Counted from the first letter of the stretch, positions 1,944-21,312 are shown. The stretch is DNA of 28,109 bases from Corallococcus exiguus (GCF_013155575.1 NZ_JABJTU010000116.1); one strand, 5' to 3'. Notes: generated from the sequence alone by a model not told the origin. Translations and numbers: made by a program.

Positions 1944-3558
1944 CTACTTGTTGATGCGCACCATGGCCACGTCGTAGTGGCGCTCGGTCACGTAGCCGTT
2001 CGCGGCCTTGCCGGGGCGGTACATGTTCCCGGTCTTGTCATCCACGTAGAAGCGGTTGTTCGGGTTCGTGTCCTTGCCCGTGCTGGCGTTCTTCGTGCCC
2101 GGGTCGTGGAACGTGTAGTAGGTGCGGCCCTTGTCGTCGACGCCGCGGCCCGTGATGGTCACGAAGTGGTCCGTGAGGCCGTCCGCGTTGTAGCTCGCGT
2201 CCTTGTGGCTCACGCCCACGACCACCGGCTTGCCGGCCTCCAGCTGCTTGTCGATGTAGCTGCGGCCCTCGGCGGCCTTCTTCGAGTCCACATTGAGCGC
2301 GCCGACGCCGTTCTCGCTCTTGCCCACCTGGATGCGGCGGTCCGGGCCCAGCACGGTCGCGCCGGAGTCACGCGCCATCGCCGTCGCGGCCTTGAAGCAC
2401 GCCGTGTCGCTCGCGGTGTAGCCGTGGCCGTTCTCGAACTGGCTGTAGTACGGCACCTTCACGTGCACCGCAGGCTTGTCCTTGGACGGGGCCACCTGCT
2501 CCGTGTTCGCGGGGGCCGCCTCCGTGGTGGGCTTGGAGGTGTTCGTGCCCTGCGTCGTGGGCTTGCCTTCCGTGGTGCCCGGCTTCGAGCCGTTGTTCAC
2601 GGACGGGGGAACCACGCCCGTGTTGGTGTTGGCCGGCTTCGTCGTGGTGCCCGACTTCTCCTGCTTCAGCATCGCGAGGGCGTCCTTCGCCTCCGACTTG
2701 AAGCGATTGGCCACGCCCTTCTGCACGTCCTTGGAGCTGCCGGAGAAGTGCACCAGGGTGCCGCTGGCGTTGGTGCGGCCGCGCTCGGCGTAGATGTCCT
2801 TGATGAGCTGCTCGTCGCTCACCTTCGCGGGGTCGCGACCGTTGAGCGCCTTCTTGAAGATGTCGTCCGCCTTGCCCGGGCCGTGCTGCACGGAGGTGGA
2901 CCAGGCCACGTCCCGCAGCGCCGCGGAGCGCTTGTCCAGGTCGATGCCCGTCGCCTTCTTGATGTTGGCGGCGCCCGCGTCGTAGTGCGTGGTCTTGATG
3001 TAGTCGTGCTGCGCCTTGTCGAAGCCCTTCGGGTCCTTCGCGGCCAGCTGCTTCCACGCGGCGGAGAACTCCGCGGTGCCCGGCTTGCTGCCCGACAGCG
3101 CCTTGTGGAACTCCGGGTTCGTCTTCTTCAGCGAGTTGACGAACGACTGCGCGGACCCGTTCGCGGAGGCGAACTGGTAGGAGCCGTAGGACACGCCGCC
3201 CTTGTCACCCTTGCCCGTGGACACGGTGCCGGGGCCGCGAGCCTCGTACTTGCGGCTCAGCCCGCCCAGCTCCCCGTTGGTCGCGCTGCTGGAGTTCGTG
3301 TTCGCGGCGGGCGTGGTCGCCTTCGCGCCGTCCGTGGACTGCGTGAAGCTGTCGCCCGACGTCTTCGTCCCCGCGCTCGACTTGTTGGTGCCCTTCGTGT
3401 CGAAGCCGTCCTGCACCTTCAGCGTCTGGCCAGCCAGGATCTTGTTCGGATCCTTGATGTTGTTCGCCTTGGCCAGCGCGTCAACGGTGGTGTTGTAGCG
3501 CTTCGCGAGGCCGGAAAGCGTGTCACCCGACTGGATGCGAACGTTGGAGACGGTCACG
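1944..3558 (-). CDS. Multidomain cell-wall hydrolase: N-terminal LysM + central lysozyme-like (GH108-like?) region + C-terminal C39-like (Peptidase_C39_2/BtrH-like) cysteine peptidase; no signal peptide
   Basis: The track ORF runs to a GTG at 3662 with no SD. An internal GTG at 3558 is preceded by AGAGGGG at 8-nt spacing and is preferred. LysM: [43 protein letters not shown]. Central [19 protein letters not shown] is lysozyme/GH108-like. C-terminal [28 protein letters not shown] ... DHFVTITG gives the Cys/His of a C39-like peptidase. Long Thr/Ser/Gly/Lys low-complexity linkers separate the domains. Confidence 0.6.
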
Positions 3559-3690
3559 GAGAAGACCCCTCTATGTCTGGCCGCGACCAAAGGCGCCGCG
3601 GACGTGCTTGGATTGACCGGATTATCGAAAGGCAATGCGATCAGTTTCGCATTCCCAGTCACAATCGTGTGAAACCAGTGATTCCAGCAA

Positions 3691-3726
3691 CTTCAGTTTC
3701 AGCGGATCGATCCGCTGAGACTGAAG
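3691..3726. promoter_or_regulatory. 36-bp near-perfect palindrome (18-bp arms, 1 mismatch) in a divergent intergenic region; candidate operator
   Basis: cttcagtttcagcggatc|gatccgctgagactgaag. Its 3' end lies 25 bp upstream of the ATG at 3751, between divergently transcribed genes. Confidence 0.4.
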
Positions 3727-3750
3727 AACCTGCCCAGGAGGACCAGTCGG

Positions 3751-4785
3751 ATGTCCAGGATCCAACCGGAATTCAAAAGTTTGGCATTACTGTTTGCCAT
3801 TTGCGTCACGGGCGCGGTCCCGGACGCCTCGGCTCAGGGGTCCGAGGGACTCACGGGGGTCTATTCAAACAAGGGCGGGACGCTCGCCATCGTCGAGGGC
3901 AGCAACGAGACGCTCGTGCACTTCTCGGGCTCGTTCCCGCAGGGCAGCAGCGCGGGCACCTGCGATTGCGCCCTGGTCGTCCAGAAGAAGACAGTCACGA
4001 ATTGGTCACTTCATCAGGCGGGTGAGGAAGACGCCTGGACGCTGCGCGTCAATCCCAAGCAATTCGTCCTGGAGTCGGGTCCGTCACCGTCCTGTTGCGG
4101 CGCCGGCTACTCAGGCAAGGACTCGTTCGCCCGGAGCACCGCCAAGCCGCTGAGCATCTGCAAGGTGAAGGTGTCCAAGGCGGGCTTCCACGCGTCGGAC
4201 GCGGCCAACACGCCGCGCAAGGCGTTCGTGGTGTCCGGCGACGCGGTGGAGGCCTACGTCGACCCGGTGGAGCCGGACTTCCTCGCCGCGCGCTTCCAGG
4301 GGCCCCAGAAGGCCACGGCGGGGCTGATCAAGCGTGAGGACCTGGACTGCGCGGCGGAAGGCGCGCCCACGGCCGCGAAGGCTCCCGTGGCCGCGGACAA
4401 GCTCCAGCCCTTCGCGGGGACGTGGGTGGAGTTGACGCGGCAGGGCAAGGGCTTCGTGGTGCTCAAGCCCTGCTCGGCCGCGACGCGCAGCTTCACCGTC
4501 AAGCCCGCGACGGGCGAGGTGGAGGTGCAGCTGGGCCAGGAGGCCACGACGATGAAGGTGACGTCCGTGGAGGCCGGCAAGGGCGCCGGGGCCTGGGTGC
4601 TAGGGCTCACGGCCGCGGACGGCAAGCCGGAGGCGCTCCAGTGGAAGACGGCCGACGCCGCGAAGGGCACCGTGACCGTGAACAGCCCGGACCTCTTCTC
4701 CCAGAGCCACGACTACGTGCGCCAGGAGAAGAAGTCCGCCTTCCCGTCCAAGCAGGAGACGGGGTGCGACGAGTTCGAGCGCTAA
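3751..4785 (+). CDS. Secreted hypothetical protein (Sec signal peptide, Cys-containing, Ala/Lys/Thr-rich)
   Basis: AGGAGGA at 3736-3742 sits 8 nt before the ATG. N-terminus MSRIQPEFKSLALLFAICVTGAVPDASAQG is a classic signal peptide. The first ~350 nt have noticeably lower GC than the surroundings. Its TAA stop (4783-4785) overlaps the TAG of the convergent metalloprotease gene (4782-4784). Confidence 0.65.
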   Translation: MSRIQPEFKSLALLFAICVTGAVPDASAQGSEGLTGVYSNKGGTLAIVEGSNETLVHFSGSFPQGSSAGTCDCALVVQKKTVTNWSLHQAGEEDAWTLRVNPKQFVLESGPSPSCCGAGYSGKDSFARSTAKPLSICKVKVSKAGFHASDAANTPRKAFVVSGDAVEAYVDPVEPDFLAARFQGPQKATAGLIKREDLDCAAEGAPTAAKAPVAADKLQPFAGTWVELTRQGKGFVVLKPCSAATRSFTVKPATGEVEVQLGQEATTMKVTSVEAGKGAGAWVLGLTAADGKPEALQWKTADAAKGTVTVNSPDLFSQSHDYVRQEKKSAFPSKQETGCDEFER

Positions 4786-6362
4786 CGCGCCCGTGAACGC
4801 CGCCGGGCCCGCAGGCCCCCGCCGAGCAACAGCGCGATGAGCGCACCGGACAGGGGGCCCCCCGCGGCCTGGCAGCCACCGTCATCCGCGGGCGTGCGCG
4901 GATCATCGATGGGGTCCACGGGCTTGCCCGCGTCCACGGTCCCCGCATCGGCGGTGCCTGCGTCCGCGCCAGCATCGGGCGTCCCAGCGTCGGTTCCGGC
5001 GTCCGTGCCCGCGTCCAGCGACTCGAGGGGCGCGCAGGACGCGGCCTGGCCGGTGGCCGCGATGCACAGCCGGCCATAGCGCCCCAGCCCTTCCATCCGG
5101 CCGTCCACGACCGCCACCATCACGCGCGTGGCGTCATCCGCGGCCACCTGGGTGCGCAGTGCGTTCGGCCCGTCCACGGTCGCCACCCGCAGCACAGCGT
5201 CATCCGTGACGGCCGCGACGACCAGGTGCACCGTGGCCGGGTCGATGCCCGGCTCGGGCTCATACGAGGCGCCCACGAAGGACGCGCCGCCGGGGACCTC
5301 GAAGATCCGCGAGGCCGCCGCCGCGACGCGTACGCGGTCGATCGTGGTGGGGAGCTCCGCCGCCGTCTTCGCCACCGGCGCATAGCCCTCCCCTCGCGCA
5401 TAGCCGAAGCCCGGCGTCGCGCGCGGACCGGTGCCCAGGTTCCAGGTGGCGAACAGGGCGAAGGCCGCGTCGAAGCTGGAGGCAAAGTCGCGGCGCAGAC
5501 AGGTGTCCAGCAGCACCGGCCAGCGGGCCTCCGGCTGGCGCATGGACTCCTCCAGCAGCGCGACGAGCGCGGCGTCACCGTAGCGCTCGCCCACGAACTG
5601 GAAGAAGAGCCCCGCGCCGTAGATGAAGGTCACGCCGGGCCCCGCGGGGTCCAGCACCAGAGTGCTGTCCGGGGTCAGCATGTAGCCGCGGGTGAAGTGC
5701 TCCAGGTCGTCGAGCGCGGGCTCGAAGCGCTCGGTGGCCCAGACGGCGGTGCCCTCGGAGGCGACGCCGCCCAGGTCGGGCCGGTAGGCGGCCTGCACCG
5801 CGTGGAAGAACTCGTGGCTGGCCAGGATCTCCACGGCCTCTGCGTCGGACGGGTAGTTGTAGCCCGTGAAGTCGTTCTCCTGGAGCATGAAGCCCGTGCA
5901 GCGTGTGACGCCGTCCAGACAGGTCTCCTGCCGGAAGGCGCCGTCGCCAATGCCCGCGAAGTCCACCAGGTACACGTCGAAGCGGCCGTCGCCGCCGTCG
6001 TCCCCGGCGGGGTTCGTGTCATCGGGTGGCAGGCGGAAGCCCAGGTCCACGTAGAACGTCGCCACGCGTTCGTAGGTGCGCCCAACGAGCTCCACGAAGT
6101 CGGGCACGCCGCTGCCATCGGCGTCCGCGGGCGGCACGGCGTGGGTGCCCTGGCGGGTGAAGTGGATGCGGAAGCGCCCACCCGGCGACACGACGGACTC
6201 CACCGTGTCCCCGGGCTCGTAGCGTGGCGTTTGCGAAGTCGGCGAGGTGGGCCGCCCGGACTCGGCGGCCAACCCCACCACGGCCTCCCGCTCGTGCGGG
6301 AGGCCGCGCGGGGTTCCCGCGCCGGCCAGTAACAGGAGCAGCGTGGGAACCCCGGTGGTCAT
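4782..6362 (-). CDS. Secreted zinc metalloprotease (HExxH...E gluzincin-type) with DAGT tandem repeats and C-terminal MYXO-CTERM sorting signal
   Basis: Start ATG at 6362 gives MTTGVPTLLLLLAGAGTP as signal peptide. ILASHEFFHAVQ followed by ASEGTAVWATE gives HExxH plus a downstream Glu. The C-terminal ~40 aa is DAGTDAGTDAGTPDAGADAGTADAGTVDAG then GGCQAAGGPLSGALIALLLGGGLRARRRSRAR, the Cys-Gly / hydrophobic / Arg-rich layout of myxobacterial MYXO-CTERM tails. The start overlaps the upstream lipoprotein stop (TGATG), implying an operon. Confidence 0.75.
   Translation of the reverse strand: MTTGVPTLLLLLAGAGTPRGLPHEREAVVGLAAESGRPTSPTSQTPRYEPGDTVESVVSPGGRFRIHFTRQGTHAVPPADADGSGVPDFVELVGRTYERVATFYVDLGFRLPPDDTNPAGDDGGDGRFDVYLVDFAGIGDGAFRQETCLDGVTRCTGFMLQENDFTGYNYPSDAEAVEILASHEFFHAVQAAYRPDLGGVASEGTAVWATERFEPALDDLEHFTRGYMLTPDSTLVLDPAGPGVTFIYGAGLFFQFVGERYGDAALVALLEESMRQPEARWPVLLDTCLRRDFASSFDAAFALFATWNLGTGPRATPGFGYARGEGYAPVAKTAAELPTTIDRVRVAAAASRIFEVPGGASFVGASYEPEPGIDPATVHLVVAAVTDDAVLRVATVDGPNALRTQVAADDATRVMVAVVDGRMEGLGRYGRLCIAATGQAASCAPLESLDAGTDAGTDAGTPDAGADAGTADAGTVDAGKPVDPIDDPRTPADDGGCQAAGGPLSGALIALLLGGGLRARRRSRAR
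4921..5020. repeat. Imperfect 12-15-nt tandem coding repeats (DAGT units) in the metalloprotease C-terminal linker
   Basis: Visible both as repeated gtcc(a/g)cgg / gcgtccg units and as the DAGTDAGTDAGTPDAGADAGTADAGTVDAG peptide. Confidence 0.6.
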
Positions 6363-7390
6363 CACGGCAGGTAGGCCCAACGCAGGCGGATCGAACCCGC
6401 GCTGGTAGAAGAGCTCACCTTGCCCGTCGTGTCGCACTCCGCCTGCACGGTGGGCTCATAGTAGCCCTTGACCTGCAGCTTCGCGTGACGGCCATCCGCC
6501 AACTGGATGAGGAAGACCTTGTTCGTCATCTGCAGGCATTGGGCATAGTCCCAGAACGTGAGGGTCTGGGTCGCCGGGCTCTGGAGGCCGAACGGGTCCC
6601 CGCTGAACGTGCAGGTGTCGGGGGTGTAGTAATCCTCCGCCTGGAACTGCGCATCCGTGGGCACGGACGTCACCGATTCGAACGTCGCACCCTCCGGCGT
6701 CTGCGCCACCGTCACGCACGACGGCCCGGACACGCCGCTGTTGAAGCGGACGACGTAGCGGCGCACCGCGACGTCCCACTCCGTCGAGTTCAGCGCGGCC
6801 TGGTCATCGATGTTGACCTTCTGGAGGCCCGTCGGCGTGAAGCGCGCGTAGGTGTACGAATCCGGAACGCTGGTGCCACCCGCGCGGCCGTCCAGGAACG
6901 TGAGGTACTCGCCCTGGGTCGTGCCCTCCTCGGTCACGCCGCCGGTGGCGAGGGTGGTCCGGAGCCGGAGCTTGTCGATGCTCTGCTCCGTGCAGGCCAC
7001 GGCGTTGCGGCACAGCTCCGCGCCGCCGTCCGTGGGAGGAGTGCCCGCGTCGGTCTCCGTGCCCCCGTCGGTGGTCGTCCCTGCGTCGGTGTTGGTGCCC
7101 GCGTCGGTGGTCGTCCCTGCGTCGGTGGTCGTCCCTGCGTCGGTGGTGGTGCCCGCGTCCGTCTCCGGCTCTTCGATCGGCGTCAGGGTGCGCAGCTCGC
7201 ACTTCTTGTCCGCGTTGCAGGTCCAGGCCTGGCCCGCGGGGGCCGCTCCCTCATCGCGGCAGTCGAACGCATCCACGCACTCGTCGCCGCTGCATCCCGG
7301 CGCCACCACGGCCAGCGTGAGGGCCGCCAGGGCCCCCATGCCGAACCACCGTGCACTGCTCTTCCGGACCGCCCCTTCGGGGTTGCTCAT
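6362..7390 (-). CDS. Lipoprotein with (TDAGTT)n tandem repeat linker; first gene of a lipoprotein-metalloprotease operon
   Basis: ATG at 7390 is preceded by GGTGA at 5-nt spacing; the track ORF extends to a GTG at 7399. MSNPEGAVRKSSARWFGMGALAALTLAVVAPGCSGDEC is a signal peptide ending in a lipobox (VAPG|C). TDAGTTTDAGTTTDAGTTTDAGTNTDAGTTTDGGTETDAGT repeats follow, then a ~220-aa C-terminal domain with several Cys. The stop overlaps the ATG of the downstream protease by 1 nt (TGATG). Confidence 0.7.
   Translation of the reverse strand: MSNPEGAVRKSSARWFGMGALAALTLAVVAPGCSGDECVDAFDCRDEGAAPAGQAWTCNADKKCELRTLTPIEEPETDAGTTTDAGTTTDAGTTTDAGTNTDAGTTTDGGTETDAGTPPTDGGAELCRNAVACTEQSIDKLRLRTTLATGGVTEEGTTQGEYLTFLDGRAGGTSVPDSYTYARFTPTGLQKVNIDDQAALNSTEWDVAVRRYVVRFNSGVSGPSCVTVAQTPEGATFESVTSVPTDAQFQAEDYYTPDTCTFSGDPFGLQSPATQTLTFWDYAQCLQMTNKVFLIQLADGRHAKLQVKGYYEPTVQAECDTTGKVSSSTSAGSIRLRWAYLP
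7042..7167. repeat. 7 tandem copies of an 18-nt unit (gtscckgcgtcggtsktc) encoding the TDAGTT repeats
   Basis: Direct inspection: the units start at 7042, 7060, 7078, 7096, 7114, 7132 and 7150. Confidence 0.8.
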
Positions 7391-7399
7391 CGTCGTCAC

Positions 7400-15585: not shown

Positions 15586-16848
15586 TCAATGCTGGGTCTC
15601 GCGGTCCTTGATGAGCCGCTCCAGCTCTTCCCGGATGATGGCCTCCGCCAGCTGCGGTACGACCTCCCAGGCAATCTTCTCGATGACCTCGCGGGACGCC
15701 TTCGACAGCGCCTCGCGCAGCAGCGCCTCGCCGCCATCCGCGGCCGGACGGGCGCGCGCGGGAGGAGTCGCCGGCGAGGGGCCGCCGATATCCAGGGAGA
15801 TTTCCTCCGCGCCGCTGGGCTCGGGCAACGAGTCCTCGATGCGGATGCTCCCCGTGCGGGCCTGCGCGGCGGGCGGGGCGGCCGGTGCACCCAGCCCGAA
15901 CGGATCCCGGGCACGGGCGGCCGGAGGCACCGCGGCGGGCGGGGGCGCGGACGGCAGCGGCGCGGCGCCCGGAGGACGCGGGAAGCCGCCCGGGATGTTC
16001 GGGGCGCCAGGGCCCGGAGGACGCGCGGCCATGCCCGGAGGCGGCGCACCCGGAGGACGCGCGCCCGGCGGCACGGCACCCGGAGGAGGACGCGCCCCCG
16101 GCGGCATGGCACCCGGAGGCGGCGCACCCGGAGGACGCGCACCCATGCCCGGAGGCGGCGCACCCGGCGGAGGACGTGCACCCGGCGGCATGGCGCCCGG
16201 AGGCGGCGCACCCGGAGGACGCGCGCCCGGAGGAACAGCGCCCGGCAGCGGACGCGCCGCACCCGGAGGAGGAGGCACACCGGCGCCCGGAGGACGCGCG
16301 CCCGGAGGCACGGCACCCGGCGGAGGACGCGCACCCGGCGGCACGGCGCCCGGAGGCGGCGCACCCGCGGGACGCGCACCCGGCGGCACGGCGGCGGCGG
16401 GCGGCGCGCTGGCCGGAGCGCTCGGGGCGGAGGTCTGGGGCAGAATGCGCGTCGCGGCGGACGCGGGCATCGTGTTGGACTTCTGGCCCACCAGCGCCTT
16501 CACCTTGTCGAGGAGGATCTGGCTCTCGAAGGGCTTGGCGATGTGGTCATCCGCCCGGGCGGCCTTCGCGCGGTTCTCGTCGAACGCCTCGAAGGTGCCG
16601 GCCAGGAGCAGCACCGGGATGGCCTGCGTGGAGGGGTCGCTCTTGAGCGCCTCGCAGACCTCGTAGCCGCTCTTGCCCGGCATCATCACGTCGGCGAGCA
16701 CCACGTCCGGACGCAGCTCGCGCGCGCGGGAGATGGCGTCCAGCCCGTTGTCCACCGCGGTCACCTGGAAGTCTTCCGTCGCGAAGATCATCCCGATCAC
16801 CTTGCGGATGGTGAGCGAGTCGTCGGCGATCAGTAGATTCTTGGGCAT
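15586..16848 (-). CDS. romR: RomR-like response regulator: N-terminal receiver domain, very long Pro/Gly/Ala-rich (PPGARPPGA)n linker, conserved acidic helical C-terminal domain
   Basis: Receiver motifs LLIADDS ... DVVLADVMMPGKSGYEV ... KPF. ~190 aa of PPGA/PPGARPPGAV repeats. C-terminal LLREALSKASREVIEKIAWEVVPQLAEAIIREELERLIKD. The REC / Pro-rich / Glu-rich helix architecture matches M. xanthus RomR as remembered. Start taken at ATG 16848 (MPKNLLIADD); alternatives are ATG 16872 or TTG 16932. Confidence 0.6.
   Translation of the reverse strand: MPKNLLIADDSLTIRKVIGMIFATEDFQVTAVDNGLDAISRARELRPDVVLADVMMPGKSGYEVCEALKSDPSTQAIPVLLLAGTFEAFDENRAKAARADDHIAKPFESQILLDKVKALVGQKSNTMPASAATRILPQTSAPSAPASAPPAAAVPPGARPAGAPPPGAVPPGARPPPGAVPPGARPPGAGVPPPPGAARPLPGAVPPGARPPGAPPPGAMPPGARPPPGAPPPGMGARPPGAPPPGAMPPGARPPPGAVPPGARPPGAPPPGMAARPPGPGAPNIPGGFPRPPGAAPLPSAPPPAAVPPAARARDPFGLGAPAAPPAAQARTGSIRIEDSLPEPSGAEEISLDIGGPSPATPPARARPAADGGEALLREALSKASREVIEKIAWEVVPQLAEAIIREELERLIKDRETQH
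15900..16455. repeat. Highly repetitive GC-rich coding repeats (ggcgcacccggaggacgcgcgcccggcggcacg-type, 9/27-nt periodicity) encoding the Pro-rich linker
   Basis: Direct inspection; the same units recur more than 15 times with minor variation. Confidence 0.8.
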
Positions 16849-16965
16849 CGGCTCCGGCCTCGGGGGGCGCATACCCCCCTGAATTCGTTTGAGATTTCGG
16901 GCGAGCAAGCCTGCCTGCACGCCCTGTGTCAATCGGAGAAGCTTAGGATTCGCGCGTTGGGCCGA

Positions 16966-17778
16966 TCAAGAAAACATGCGCTGCAGGTCCAGTAACATCA
17001 CCGGATCCGGCAGCCCCGGCGCCCGGAACGTTCCGGGAAGCTCGGCCGGCTTGAACTTCTGCAGCACACCAAGCACCCGGGTGGCCGCCAGCCCCACGTT
17101 CCGCCCCGCCAGTTCCGTGAGGACGAACAGCTCCTCCGCCTGGGCCGGCGCACCCAGCAGCGCTGGAATCGAACAGATGGGCCACAGCGCCTGCGCGTGG
17201 GGATAGACGCCCGCCACCGGCCCGCTCTGCACCGGGAGCACGCTGAACGCCTCGCCCCGGGGCACCACCTGGGAGACGCAACCCAGCGGAACGCCGAACA
17301 GCACCCCCTGGGATTCCAGCACCAGTGCCCGCTCCGGGGGCACGTCCGCGTAGTGCACGGGCCGGGGCTCCGGCGGGGTCGCCCGGGGACCCGCCCGGTG
17401 CGGCAGCGCCTCCACGATGAGCTCCAGGTACAGCCGATCCTTGTGCAGCACCGCGCCCCGGCTCAGCGGCGCCAGCGAGTCCGCCAGGCCCGGAGGCAGC
17501 AGGAAGAACGGATCCCTCGCGACGTCCGCGACCTCCACCACGGCGCGCACCCGCACCGCGAGCGTGGGGCTGACGTCCAGGACCACGACCATGCCCGGCA
17601 CTTCCTCAGGCAGGCCGCCGAGCAGCGCGGCGAGGTCCTTCACTTCCAGTACGCCGCGCAGACTCGCGCCGCGAGCGCCCGGCATCGCGACCTCGATGAC
17701 GGAGGTGGCCTCTACCGCGTAGCGCGTCTCTCCGGCCTCCACCAGCAGGCAGAGCCGCCGTCCGCTTTCAAAGGGCAC
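16966..17778 (-). CDS. Tandem CheW-like domain protein (putative chemosensory coupling/adaptor protein), upstream of and probably co-transcribed with the romR-like gene
   Basis: Two segments resemble CheW cores (RRLCLLVEAGETRYAVEATSVIEV ... VKDLAALLG and ALVLESQGVLFGVPLGCVSQVV). GTG start at 17778 is preceded by AGGG. Its stop lies 34 nt before the upstream-most romR start candidate. The family call is weak. Confidence 0.4.
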   Translation of the reverse strand: MPFESGRRLCLLVEAGETRYAVEATSVIEVAMPGARGASLRGVLEVKDLAALLGGLPEEVPGMVVVLDVSPTLAVRVRAVVEVADVARDPFFLLPPGLADSLAPLSRGAVLHKDRLYLELIVEALPHRAGPRATPPEPRPVHYADVPPERALVLESQGVLFGVPLGCVSQVVPRGEAFSVLPVQSGPVAGVYPHAQALWPICSIPALLGAPAQAEELFVLTELAGRNVGLAATRVLGVLQKFKPAELPGTFRAPGLPDPVMLLDLQRMFS

Positions 17779-19235: not shown

Positions 19236-19625
19236 CTACTTGCGCAGGCTGCCCACGGTGAGGTGCTTGGGCAGCTCCACTTCCGCGGGCACGCCGCCGC
19301 CGCCCTCGCCCACCGCCTCCACCTCTTCGTGAGACGCGCCGGTGGTGATGAGGCGGTACTTCTGCGACGCCTCGCGGTCGTGCTGGGCCTGCTCCGGATC
19401 CAACCGCGCGATGAGCTGCCAGAAGAGGGCCGCGTGCTCCCGCTCCTCGTCCATGACGTGCCGCAGGATGGCCTTCGCCTCCTCGTTGTCCGTCGCGTCC
19501 AGGTGCGCGGCGTAGAGGTTGATGGCGTCCAGCTCCGCCTCGATGTTGAGCCGGATGGAGCGGGCCAGTTCGGAGTCCGTCAGCTTCCGGGGCACCAGCG
19601 AGTGGAACGGGTTCGTCTGCGGCAT
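19236..19625 (-). CDS. encC: Ferritin-like (rubrerythrin/EncFtn-type ExxH) encapsulin cargo protein of the EncB/EncC type, with C-terminal LTVGSLR targeting peptide
   Basis: ATG at 19625 is preceded by GAGG at 5-nt spacing; the long upstream part of the track ORF has GC-artefact composition and was rejected. 129 aa. EAELDAINLYAAHLD ... MDEEREHAALFWQLI gives a di-iron ExxH helix pair. A Gly-rich linker (GEGGGG) is followed by the C-terminal PKHLTVGSLRK, matching the LTVGSLR-type cargo-loading peptide of M. xanthus EncB/C/D as remembered. No encapsulin shell gene is in the window. Confidence 0.7.
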   Translation of the reverse strand: MPQTNPFHSLVPRKLTDSELARSIRLNIEAELDAINLYAAHLDATDNEEAKAILRHVMDEEREHAALFWQLIARLDPEQAQHDREASQKYRLITTGASHEEVEAVGEGGGGVPAEVELPKHLTVGSLRK

Positions 19626-19782
19626 GAAGACCTCAGCGACAGGGAGGGTTTCCAGCAAGCGAGCGGGCAGCAGCGTTTCCGTCAGGCCAGGCCGGAAGGC
19701 GTGCGCGAGCATCCGTTCGGTCGCGAGCGCGGTCAACCGAATCCCGCTGGGGGTGCGTTGCACGTGAACACCTGCCTCCGCC

Positions 19783-21312
19783 ATGCTCCCGCGCATGGAG
19801 ACCCCCTCGGCGCTCGCGCAGCTTCTCCAGGCCCTGGACGCGGGGGACCTGGAGAAGGCACGGCTCGCGGCCGTGGCGCTGCAACGCGCCAACGCCCACA
19901 CCCATCAGGTCGCCGCGGAGGTCCTCCATGAGCTGCGTCAGCCCCTGCTGGGCGCGAAGGCCTACGCCCAGCTGCTGGCCGAGGAAGGAGGCTCCAGCGG
20001 CCCGCTGAAGCTGCTGCTCGCGCAGGTGGAGCGGATGGAGCAGATCGTCTCCGACTTCATCCGCCTGGCCAGCGAGCGGCCGGCCCCGCAGCAGCGGCTG
20101 TCCCTGGCCGCGCCCATCTGGGCGGCGGCGAAGGTGTTCAGCGTCAACCCGGACTCGGCGCGCATCTCCCTGGAGGTGGAGGCCCCCGAGGACCTCACCA
20201 TCCAGGGCAACGCGCGGCTGATTGAGCAGCTCACGCTCAACCTGCTCAACAACGCCCGCGACGCCATGTCCGGCCGGGGCCGCGTGAAGGTGACGCTCAC
20301 GCGCGATGGCGCCTCCGCGGCCCTCTACGTGTCCGACTGGGGACCGGGCATCCCGGACGAGCTGAAGACGCGCATCTTCGAACCCTACGTCTCCGCCAGC
20401 AAACGCGGCACGGGCCTGGGGCTCGCCGTCTGTCGTCGCATCGCGCAGGAGCACCACGCGCAGATTGCCCTGGTGCCGCCCACGACGCTGCGCGAGGTGC
20501 CGCCCCCGGCCACTGTGTTCCGCGTGCTCTTCCCGCCCACGGACGCGCCGCGCCCGCCGCGCAAGCGCCTGCTGGTGGTGGACGACGAGGGCATCATCCG
20601 GATGGTCTTCAAGGACCTGATGGACAAGGAGTGCGAGGTCATTGAAGCGGCCACGGGCGAGGCCGCGCTCGAAATCCTCCGCTCGTCGCGCGTGGACCTC
20701 ATCGTCACGGACAAGAACCTGCCCGGCATCTCCGGCCTGGAGCTGGCCCAGCACGCGCGGAAGCTGGACCCCGCGTCGCGCGTCATCCTGATGACGGGCT
20801 ACCCCTCGCTGGTGACGACGCAGCAGGCGCTGCAGCTGGGCGTGGTGGACTACCTGCTCAAGCCCTTCGACGACATCCGCCAGGTGCGCGCGCTGCTGCG
20901 GCAGGCGCTGTACACGCCGGCCGCGCCGCCTGTCCCCGCCCCCAGCGCTGGCGTGCGCCGGGTGGACGTGCTGGAGGACAACCCGGCCACCGCGCGGCTG
21001 ATTTCAGAGGCGCTGACGCTGCTGGGCCTGGAGGCGCGCGTCGTCGCGGGCGCGGAGGTGGCCACCATGGAGCCGCCCGTGGGCGTGGTGGTGTCGTGGG
21101 ACTTCGCGCCGGCCTACGGCAAGAAGGCGCTGGAGCTGGCCCGGGCCCTGAGCCAGGGCGCGCCCTTCGTCGTCCTGGCCGAGCACCTCACCATGGACAC
21201 GGCGCTGGCGTCGCTGCGCGCCGGGGCCGCCGCGTGCCTGCCCAAGCTGCTCTCCGACACCTCCGCGCTCAGCCGAGAGCTGGGCCTGGCCTTCAAGAAG
21301 ACCGCTTCCTGA
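19783..21312 (+). CDS. Hybrid sensor histidine kinase / response regulator (HisKA + HATPase_c + receiver + second receiver-like domain)
   Basis: H-box HELRQPL. N/G boxes NLLNNARDAM and DWGPGIP ... GTGLGLAV. Receiver LLVVDDEGIIR ... DLIVTDKNLPGISG ... KPF. The C-terminal ~120 aa is a degenerate receiver-like domain. No obvious RBS at either candidate ATG (19783/19795). Confidence 0.8.
   Translation: MLPRMETPSALAQLLQALDAGDLEKARLAAVALQRANAHTHQVAAEVLHELRQPLLGAKAYAQLLAEEGGSSGPLKLLLAQVERMEQIVSDFIRLASERPAPQQRLSLAAPIWAAAKVFSVNPDSARISLEVEAPEDLTIQGNARLIEQLTLNLLNNARDAMSGRGRVKVTLTRDGASAALYVSDWGPGIPDELKTRIFEPYVSASKRGTGLGLAVCRRIAQEHHAQIALVPPTTLREVPPPATVFRVLFPPTDAPRPPRKRLLVVDDEGIIRMVFKDLMDKECEVIEAATGEAALEILRSSRVDLIVTDKNLPGISGLELAQHARKLDPASRVILMTGYPSLVTTQQALQLGVVDYLLKPFDDIRQVRALLRQALYTPAAPPVPAPSAGVRRVDVLEDNPATARLISEALTLLGLEARVVAGAEVATMEPPVGVVVSWDFAPAYGKKALELARALSQGAPFVVLAEHLTMDTALASLRAGAAACLPKLLSDTSALSRELGLAFKKTAS

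Follow-up and report, generated by a model that had tools for sequence, protein, structure and literature searches.

The C-terminal domain (CTD) of Vibrio cholerae VgrG3 (VgrG-3C; structures 4NOO and 4NSO; immunity protein TsiV3/TsaB) is a glycoside hydrolase that acts on peptidoglycan; its catalytic residues are described as lysozyme-like or chitosanase-like (PMC6099711; PMC12663445), and a periplasmic immunity protein neutralizes it (PMC6099711). The Bacteroides fragilis type VI secretion system (T6SS) effector BtaeB (Bfe7), whose immunity protein is BtaiB (9JDD, 9JG8/9JG9), is a 617-amino-acid (aa) cargo effector co-secreted with BtpeA via the adaptor BtapC (PMC13402684). Aeromonas dhakensis TseP is a chimeric amidase and lysozyme T6SS effector, both domains of which are bound and inhibited by a single protein, TsiP (PMC11893102). 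Few contact-dependent toxins are known from myxobacteria, where one T6SS pair of Myxococcus xanthus, TsxE/TsxI (MXAN_5572/5571), has been characterized: TsxE (LysM plus amidohydrolase) is a VgrG2- and T6SS-dependent effector with TsxI as its immunity protein, and its authors expected further unlinked effector-immunity pairs (PMC5801462). Here we describe a divergent gene pair in a 28,109-nucleotide stretch of Corallococcus exiguus DNA (GCF_013155575.1 NZ_JABJTU010000116.1; hereafter the window), which encodes a signal-less cell wall hydrolase and a secreted partner protein. The hydrolase unites homologues of the VgrG3 and BtaeB enzyme domains behind a LysM domain, and with moderate confidence we read the two genes as an antibacterial peptidoglycan toxin and antidote module for interbacterial killing. 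The hydrolase gene and its parts are as follows.

1944..3557, minus strand: hydrolase coding sequence, 537 aa (start GTG 3557-3555, stop 1944-1946; from open reading frame and GC3 frame analysis and orthologue N-termini)
3414..3539, minus strand: LysM peptidoglycan/chitin-binding domain at the extreme N-terminus, aa 7-48 (Pfam PF01476)
3270..3410, minus strand: linker 1, aa 50-96, T/S/G/A/K-rich and of low complexity (composition)
2691..3269, minus strand: VgrG3-C-type lysozyme-like (chitosanase-fold) glycoside hydrolase domain, aa 97-289 (PF21277, 4NOO_A/4NSO_A)
3243-3245 and 3204-3206, minus strand: predicted catalytic residues Glu105 and Asp118, respectively (codons checked)
2463..2660, minus strand: linker 2, aa 300-365, T/P/K/G-rich (composition)
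1947..2462, minus strand: BtaeB-CTD-like papain-type cysteine peptidase/amidase domain, aa 366-537 (phmmer against 9JDD_A)
2397-2399, 2166-2168, and 2103-2105, minus strand: Cys387, His464, and Asp485, respectively (codons checked)

The minus-strand reading frame shows a strong codon-position GC bias (GC3 frame analysis; window GC, ∼69%) and offers two candidate starts, GTG 3662, which gives the longest reading (572 aa), and GTG 3557, which gives 537 aa and is preceded by a GAGGGG box ∼8 nucleotides (nt) upstream. Of nine sister Corallococcus loci, six have an in-frame TGA five to six codons before an ATG or GTG at exactly the position equivalent to 3557, and MT.VS.Y.VRSGDTLS is the N-terminus of orthologues in Cystobacter, Archangium, Pyxidicoccus, and Stigmatella. 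These upstream stops and orthologue N-termini indicate that GTG 3557 is the true start and that the 537-aa protein opens directly with LysM; the in-frame stops in sister genomes rule out the 572-aa reading. An earlier prediction made from the sequence alone (the original prediction) had preferred the internal GTG, a choice that the sister stops and the GAGGGG box bear out, but had placed it at 3558, one position off. The protein is basic (isoelectric point [pI], 9.55), and Cys387, the predicted nucleophile, is its sole cysteine. Its best match is a C. exiguus protein with 99% identity; databases label it only "LysM peptidoglycan-binding domain-containing protein" or "VgrG-related protein," and the literature that we searched yielded no paper on the LysM/VgrG3-C/peptidase architecture or on the partner family.

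Pfam and PDB sequence matches recover all three modules foreseen by the original prediction (LysM, lysozyme-like, and cysteine peptidase-like). The N-terminal LysM is unambiguous (PF01476, 56.7 bits against a cutoff of 20.9, E = 2.4e-15), and the composition of both linkers, the first of which differs in length among orthologues, is T/S/G/K/P-rich, in keeping with the long T/S/G/K linkers noted earlier. The central domain is PF21277, T6SS_VgrG3-like_C (181 bits against a cutoff of 27, E = 2.8e-53, profile positions 1 to 182 of 183), and a clear homologue of the V. cholerae VgrG3C structures 4NOO/4NSO (∼1e-29; 4NOO_A, 1.1e-29). Its KYE and GD align with VgrG3 residues, the KYE... motif picked out in the original prediction matching residue for residue, and the aligned Glu and Asp are conserved; we take the corresponding VgrG3 catalytic residues to be E827 and D842, with which the numbering of the aligned 4NOO/4NSO chains agrees. 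Across 33 orthologues, conservation is 90% or more at both E105 and D118. The domain had been likened to GH108 (PF05838), for which the Pfam scan gives no hit at E ≤ 1; its affinity is with VgrG3-C and chitosanases instead, and some of its homologues carry precomputed GH46 hits. The same scan finds no VgrG spike domain, and thus no VgrG gp27/gp5 spike fusion, in the hydrolase, whose N-terminus is LysM.

The C-terminal VPYYSQ...C...DHF domain is homologous to the BtaeB CTD (9JDD_A/9JG8_C; E = 1.6e-21 by phmmer against 9JDD_A), which was deposited as "Peptidase C39-like domain-containing protein." Cysteine and histidine align (ACF with ACY, TDHF with TDHF of 9JDD_A), and C387, H464, and D485 are invariant in the 33 orthologues. 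Assignment to the named families was rejected, as both Peptidase_C39_2 (PF13529; 18.5 bits, cutoff 24) and BtrH_N (PF14399; 14.9 bits, cutoff 29.7) score below their curated thresholds, and in each the match is confined to the His-containing C-terminal part of the profile. The earlier label of a BtrH/C39-like cysteine peptidase therefore holds for a Cys-His-Asp domain whose predicted kinship with these families is at superfamily level only, but not for membership in either family. Together with LysM and PF21277, this homology bears out the proposed architecture of glycan- and peptide-cleaving modules on a peptidoglycan-binding anchor, and because both enzyme modules are homologous to solved T6SS toxin domains it also favors the antibacterial effector that the original prediction proposed. 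A 525-aa metagenomic homologue (P0046) has lost the catalytic Cys and His of its C-terminal domain while its lysozyme-like domain is intact.

Neither reading of the hydrolase (537 or 572 aa) carries a Sec or Tat signal, and Kyte-Doolittle hydropathy reveals no hydrophobic or transmembrane segment in it (top 12-residue value, ∼1.1, versus 2.5 for the neighbor's signal peptide). Signal peptides are likewise absent from the ∼15 homologues that we inspected from Myxococcota, Proteobacteria, and Chloroflexota, most of which open directly with LysM; the lack of a signal noted earlier is thus confirmed, and the outer membrane vesicle cargo route once suggested is unlikely because a signal peptide is missing. 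An absent export signal and a single catalytic cysteine in the reduced state would also suit an enzyme that stays in the cytoplasm and breaks down peptidoglycan fragments, whether imported or recycled, beside an unrelated secreted neighbor. LysM and lysozyme-like domains, however, work on glycan polymers, not on recycling intermediates, and this account leaves unexplained both the conserved secreted partner and a peptidase-only gene paired with a partial partner (see below), so that we hold it to be very unlikely.

Least probable of all is a domesticated phage lysin, either a tail-associated lysin or an endolysin, another origin that had been proposed. At the domain level the idea has substance: VgrG3C-like domains occur in large jumbo-phage virion proteins (phrog_34863, 1.5e-43; Erwinia and Dickeya phages, 34 to 43% identity), and the LysM matches endolysin PHROGs. 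Prophage context is lacking, however. No phage record covers 80% of the hydrolase, the best reaching ∼50% through the central domain only; neither the window nor the annotated flanks of orthologous loci contain phage, holin, or lysis genes; and the partner has no PHROG hit. Nor are tRNA or Rfam elements present at the locus as marks of an island.

If the hydrolase is a delivered toxin, T6SS is the leading candidate for its export, a plausible route because both toxin domains have T6SS-delivered relatives, because M. xanthus TsxE, which bears LysM, depends on T6SS and VgrG2 (PMC5801462), and because TseP/TsiP is a precedent for a chimeric amidase-lysozyme T6SS effector held in check by one immunity protein (PMC11893102). 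Like the hydrolase, TsxE is a myxobacterial LysM-bearing protein with a predicted wall target and an adjacent immunity gene without a recognizable domain, and the cloning primer used for it, which encodes METYVVK, suggests that it too opens directly with LysM (PMC5801462). TsxE differs in having an amidohydrolase_2 domain and no lysozyme/cysteine-peptidase pair, and tsxE shares an operon with tsxI and follows vgrG2, whereas the Corallococcus pair is divergent and unlinked to vgrG. The domain families of TseP are unrelated to those of the hydrolase (its N-terminal amidase is Zn-dependent), and TseP adjoins its carrier VgrG2 and has no LysM. Unlike BtaeB, the Corallococcus hydrolase has neither an adaptor of the BtapC kind nor the BtaeB N-terminal region.

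The second gene of the pair begins on the opposite strand, head-to-head with the hydrolase.

3558..3750, no strand: intergenic region of 193 bp between the divergent hydrolase and neighbor genes (head-to-head order conserved)
3751..4785, plus strand: coding sequence of the secreted partner, 344 aa, a putative immunity protein (orthologues adjoin the hydrolase in other genera)
3751-3834, plus strand: Sec signal peptide of the partner, aa 1-28, predicted cleavage ASA/QG (hydropathy)
3838..4359, plus strand: partner domains D1 (aa ∼30-140, eight-stranded beta-barrel) and D2 (aa ∼141-203, bacterial SH3-like)
4363..4782, plus strand: partner domain D3 (aa 205-344), lipocalin-like barrel, the portion of the partner with a resemblance to the BtaiB immunity protein

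Both promoters presumably lie within 3558..3750, in which no sigma-70 consensus was found; a promoter and terminator scan of the locus was uninformative. A neighboring immunity gene had been named as something to seek in orthologous loci, and a conserved secreted partner is what these loci hold. Taking one genome per species, our locus scan yielded 21 loci with the full three-module hydrolase, and 20 of them have a match to the partner profile in the same position; the one locus that lacks it belongs to a second paralogue, whose genome has the pair already. In Cystobacter fuscus, Stigmatella erecta, and Pyxidicoccus xibeiensis the partner (45 to 52% identity) stands head-to-head with the hydrolase while all other flanking genes differ. 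Within Corallococcus the hydrolase locus is syntenic, among housekeeping genes. One Corallococcus strain (L038) has an extra LysM-plus-peptidase gene (P0137; 5001-5849, plus strand), 78% identical to the hydrolase C-terminal domain, directly after the hydrolase, along with an Exo_endo_phos gene, before the aromatic amino-acid hydroxylase gene.

The mature part of the partner has eight conserved cysteines and no match in Pfam, PHROGs, or PDB sequences, and no similarity of sequence or fold to TsiV3/TsaB was found. A separate, better model of D1-D2 (pLDDT 90) gave generic barrel and bacterial SH3 matches only and no BtaiB, which places the BtaiB resemblance in D3. Searched with a partner profile, 1.84 billion representative proteins yielded 141 relatives of the partner: a handful are full-length, ∼12 are D3-only, and most are ∼200-aa secreted proteins that consist of D1D2 only and form ∼100 clusters, so that D1D2 is a stand-alone family as well, one for which Pfam has no model and no fold match is known. 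One such D1D2-only orphan occurs in Hyalangium with no hydrolase nearby; orphan copies of this kind would fit the behavior of immunity genes, among which they are common. The D3 part also has a hydrolase-side counterpart. On a metagenomic contig (L040), a signal-less peptidase-only gene (P0141) is head-to-head with a gene for a 155-aa protein composed of a signal peptide and D3 only (D3 hidden Markov model, 1.9e-38). We rejected a second apparent modular pair (L039, 4573-5747), in which the hydrolase peptidase part and the partner D3 part lie 20 nt apart: the 5′ halves and the signal peptide are missing and only the 3′ ends of both genes are left, the remnant of a single deletion.

Building on the domain homologies, catalytic residue conservation, signal absence, gene pairing, and the secretion signal and fold of the partner, all computed here, we infer enzymatic activities, inhibition by the partner, a delivery route, and target organisms for the toxin and antidote module. 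Synthesized in the cytoplasm and lacking an export signal, the hydrolase would be loaded onto a contact-dependent machine, most likely the myxobacterial T6SS. Inside the target's periplasm, with LysM holding the toxin to the sacculus, the VgrG3-C-type domain would use Glu105 and Asp118 to cleave the glycan, and the BtaeB-like Cys387/His464/Asp485 domain would cleave the peptide part as an amidase or endopeptidase; attacked in both components, the wall should come apart more quickly than under one enzyme. The partner, exported by Sec to the producer's own periplasm, would neutralize toxin arriving from sibling cells; its D3 barrel would block the peptidase, and D1-D2 would either block the lysozyme-like domain or serve another protective role. 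That D1D2 neutralizes the lysozyme domain is proposed by elimination only. Rather doubtful is a fuller version in which the partner is a fused two-part immunity protein, with D3 directed against the peptidase and D1-D2 representing a new, widespread family of periplasmic inhibitors of VgrG3-type lysozymes, and in which the toxin travels by a route without a known cargo signature (an unlinked T6SS mode or another contact-dependent machine). What is new here is a LysM-led double-enzyme toxin candidate, both enzyme modules of which belong to known toxin families, with an uncharacterized three-domain partner. The locus is a conserved, testable candidate that joins toxin domains so far characterized in Vibrio and Bacteroides. 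If the reading is true, fusion of wall-degrading toxin modules can be paralleled by fusion of their immunity modules, one or more new immunity or inhibitor families exist, with a D1D2 unit far more widespread than the toxin, and the question arises of how a LysM-first, signal-less cargo is recognized for export; enzymes that cut both glycan and peptide are also relevant to enzyme-based antibacterials.

The modules of the hydrolase recur in other orders and company. Among homologues we found LysM-peptidase-lysozyme (P0053) and LysM-peptidase alone (P0137), the peptidase behind SH3 or PG_binding_1 (P0151, P0154), and the lysozyme domain joined to CHAP, to M23, or to a YkuD (L,D-transpeptidase)-like HxxG...GSxGC domain (the last seen by eye, without a profile). 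Behind a WXG100-like N-terminus stand the lysozyme domain in Chloroflexota (P0084) and a peptidase of ∼55% identity in Actinomycetota metagenome-assembled genomes (L032-L034; L032, 5572-6525, plus strand) and P0149. The peptidase fusions imply that this module has passed between phyla and been reused by type VII secretion, and such fusions and shuffling are the behavior of polymorphic toxin domains. In Pyxidicoccus xibeiensis, a second signal-less wall hydrolase with SLT, LysM, and Peptidase_C39_2 (L003, 14008-15474, plus strand) lies 4.4 kb from the orthologue, and its analogous design may be a sign that signal-less double-enzyme lysins form a broader group among myxobacteria.

Shorter LysM-VgrG3C genes have neighbors of their own. 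In Luteimonas (L004), Caulobacter (L005), and 4 of 80 metagenomic contigs (L070, L081, L083, L100), a common small protein family is encoded directly downstream, which is probably a separate immunity family; the Luteimonas member is a lipoprotein. The neighbors of short-form hydrolases in Luteimonas, Caulobacter, and Myxococcaceae are unrelated to the partner.

L004 7154-7645 and L005 7920-8525, plus strand: small protein downstream of proteobacterial LysM-VgrG3C genes

A large soil lineage of ∼40 metagenomic loci (within L044-L120) encodes LysM-VgrG3C proteins of ∼320 aa, whose genes follow one for alanine racemase and precede one for an alpha/beta hydrolase, a context in which we saw no obvious antidote gene; because this context is fixed and lacks an obvious antidote, LysM-VgrG3C proteins are not uniformly toxins. 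A conserved Ala/Gly-rich segment (AAGALG.ALAE) precedes the enzyme domain in this lineage; we rejected it as a release-type membrane anchor, since only 6 of 57 cases show strong hydrophobicity.

The soil lineage, with its place downstream of an alanine racemase gene and without an obvious antidote, raises the alternative that the Corallococcus protein is an endogenous wall remodeling enzyme, acting for example in developmental lysis or in the removal of peptidoglycan as myxospores form, and restrained by a dedicated periplasmic inhibitor. Inhibitors of a cell's own hydrolases have been described in other bacteria, and the syntenic setting among housekeeping genes in Corallococcus points the same way. 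An autolysin must reach the periplasm, however, and none of the ∼15 homologues inspected has a signal; moreover, the pair travels between contexts across genera as a two-gene unit, its distribution is patchy (non-exhaustive scans gave no M. xanthus match), and its peptidase module is ∼55% identical to WXG100-fused toxins of another phylum. We consider a remodeling role quite improbable.

Several observations weigh against the toxin and antidote module. The 28-kb window contains no vgrG, hcp, PAAR, adaptor, type VII secretion, or other secretion gene, and annotation of 5 to 8 kb on either side at five orthologous loci from four genera showed none (flank-test loci, L001-L003 and L038); a known T6SS cargo marker is absent from the hydrolase itself. 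Toxin-immunity pairs are usually co-directional, and this pair is divergent. The BtaiB resemblance was not reproduced: Foldseek with the full partner model gave no significant PDB hit, with BtaiB not among the top 50, and the D3 sequence profile does not detect BtaiB. A three-module paralogue (L029) and other peptidase-only genes (L032-L037) have no partner-type neighbor, and the peptidase-only/D3-only pair of L040 is the only clean module-for-module case found. As for the other half of the partner, D1D2 is not a general companion of VgrG3C-like hydrolases: it was found on only 2 of 80 metagenomic contigs that encode a VgrG3C-like domain, both of which also have the peptidase, and the available sequence of all 77 further contigs, none of which shows a peptidase domain, is without a D1D2 gene; many of the 80 are only 1 to 3 kb long.

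The absence of T6SS linkage from the window and orthologous flanks would suit a predatory "public-good" bacteriolysin, released by an unrecognized export route or by partial lysis of the swarm to attack exposed peptidoglycan from outside, mainly in Gram-positive or outer membrane-damaged prey, with the neighbor as a periplasmic inhibitor for self-protection. Myxobacteria are predators, and the protein has a LysM anchor, a basic pI of 9.55, and long T/S/P/K linkers of a kind typical of extracellular multidomain lysins; the signal-less SLT-LysM-C39_2 hydrolase of Pyxidicoccus suggests a general class, and one peptidase-only homologue (P0145) has a signal-like N-terminus. Such a lysin would nonetheless have to leave a cell without an export signal, and holin or lysis genes were not found nearby; an enzyme barred by the intact outer membrane would make a dedicated periplasmic inhibitor needless; and for both enzyme modules the closest characterized relatives are toxins delivered by contact. 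We accordingly regard the bacteriolysin as unlikely, if less so than the remodeling enzyme. Each of the rivals explains less than the toxin and antidote module does, chiefly as regards a signal-less enzyme accompanied by a conserved, secreted, and modularly matched partner.

The remainder of the window holds several genes of separate interest. Two proteins with DAGT / TDAGTTT repeats are encoded at 4782-6437 and 6362-7399 (both minus strand); one, of 551 aa and unmatched in Pfam, has GGC...LLLGGGLRARRRSRAR at its end, a sequence that by eye resembles a MYXO-CTERM sorting tail, and the other has an HmuY-like domain. At 7485-9761 (minus strand) lies a gene for a 758-aa bacterial homologue of the eukaryotic Major Vault Protein, with Vault repeat domains and MVP_shoulder (E = 9e-45). 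The valyl-tRNA synthetase encoded at 12038-15532 (minus strand) carries a C-terminal tail of ∼110 aa of AKKA-type repeats that matches histone H1-like HC2. The genes at 15586-16932 and 16966-17778 (both minus strand) comprise a response-regulator receiver (recognized by eye, without a profile) followed by ∼200 aa of Pro/Gly/Ala-rich low complexity, adjoining a CheW-like gene; GGDEF and hybrid kinase genes come after this pair. Finally, 19236-19904 (minus strand) encodes an EncFtn-like or rubrerythrin-like protein, possibly a ferritin of the encapsulin cargo type.

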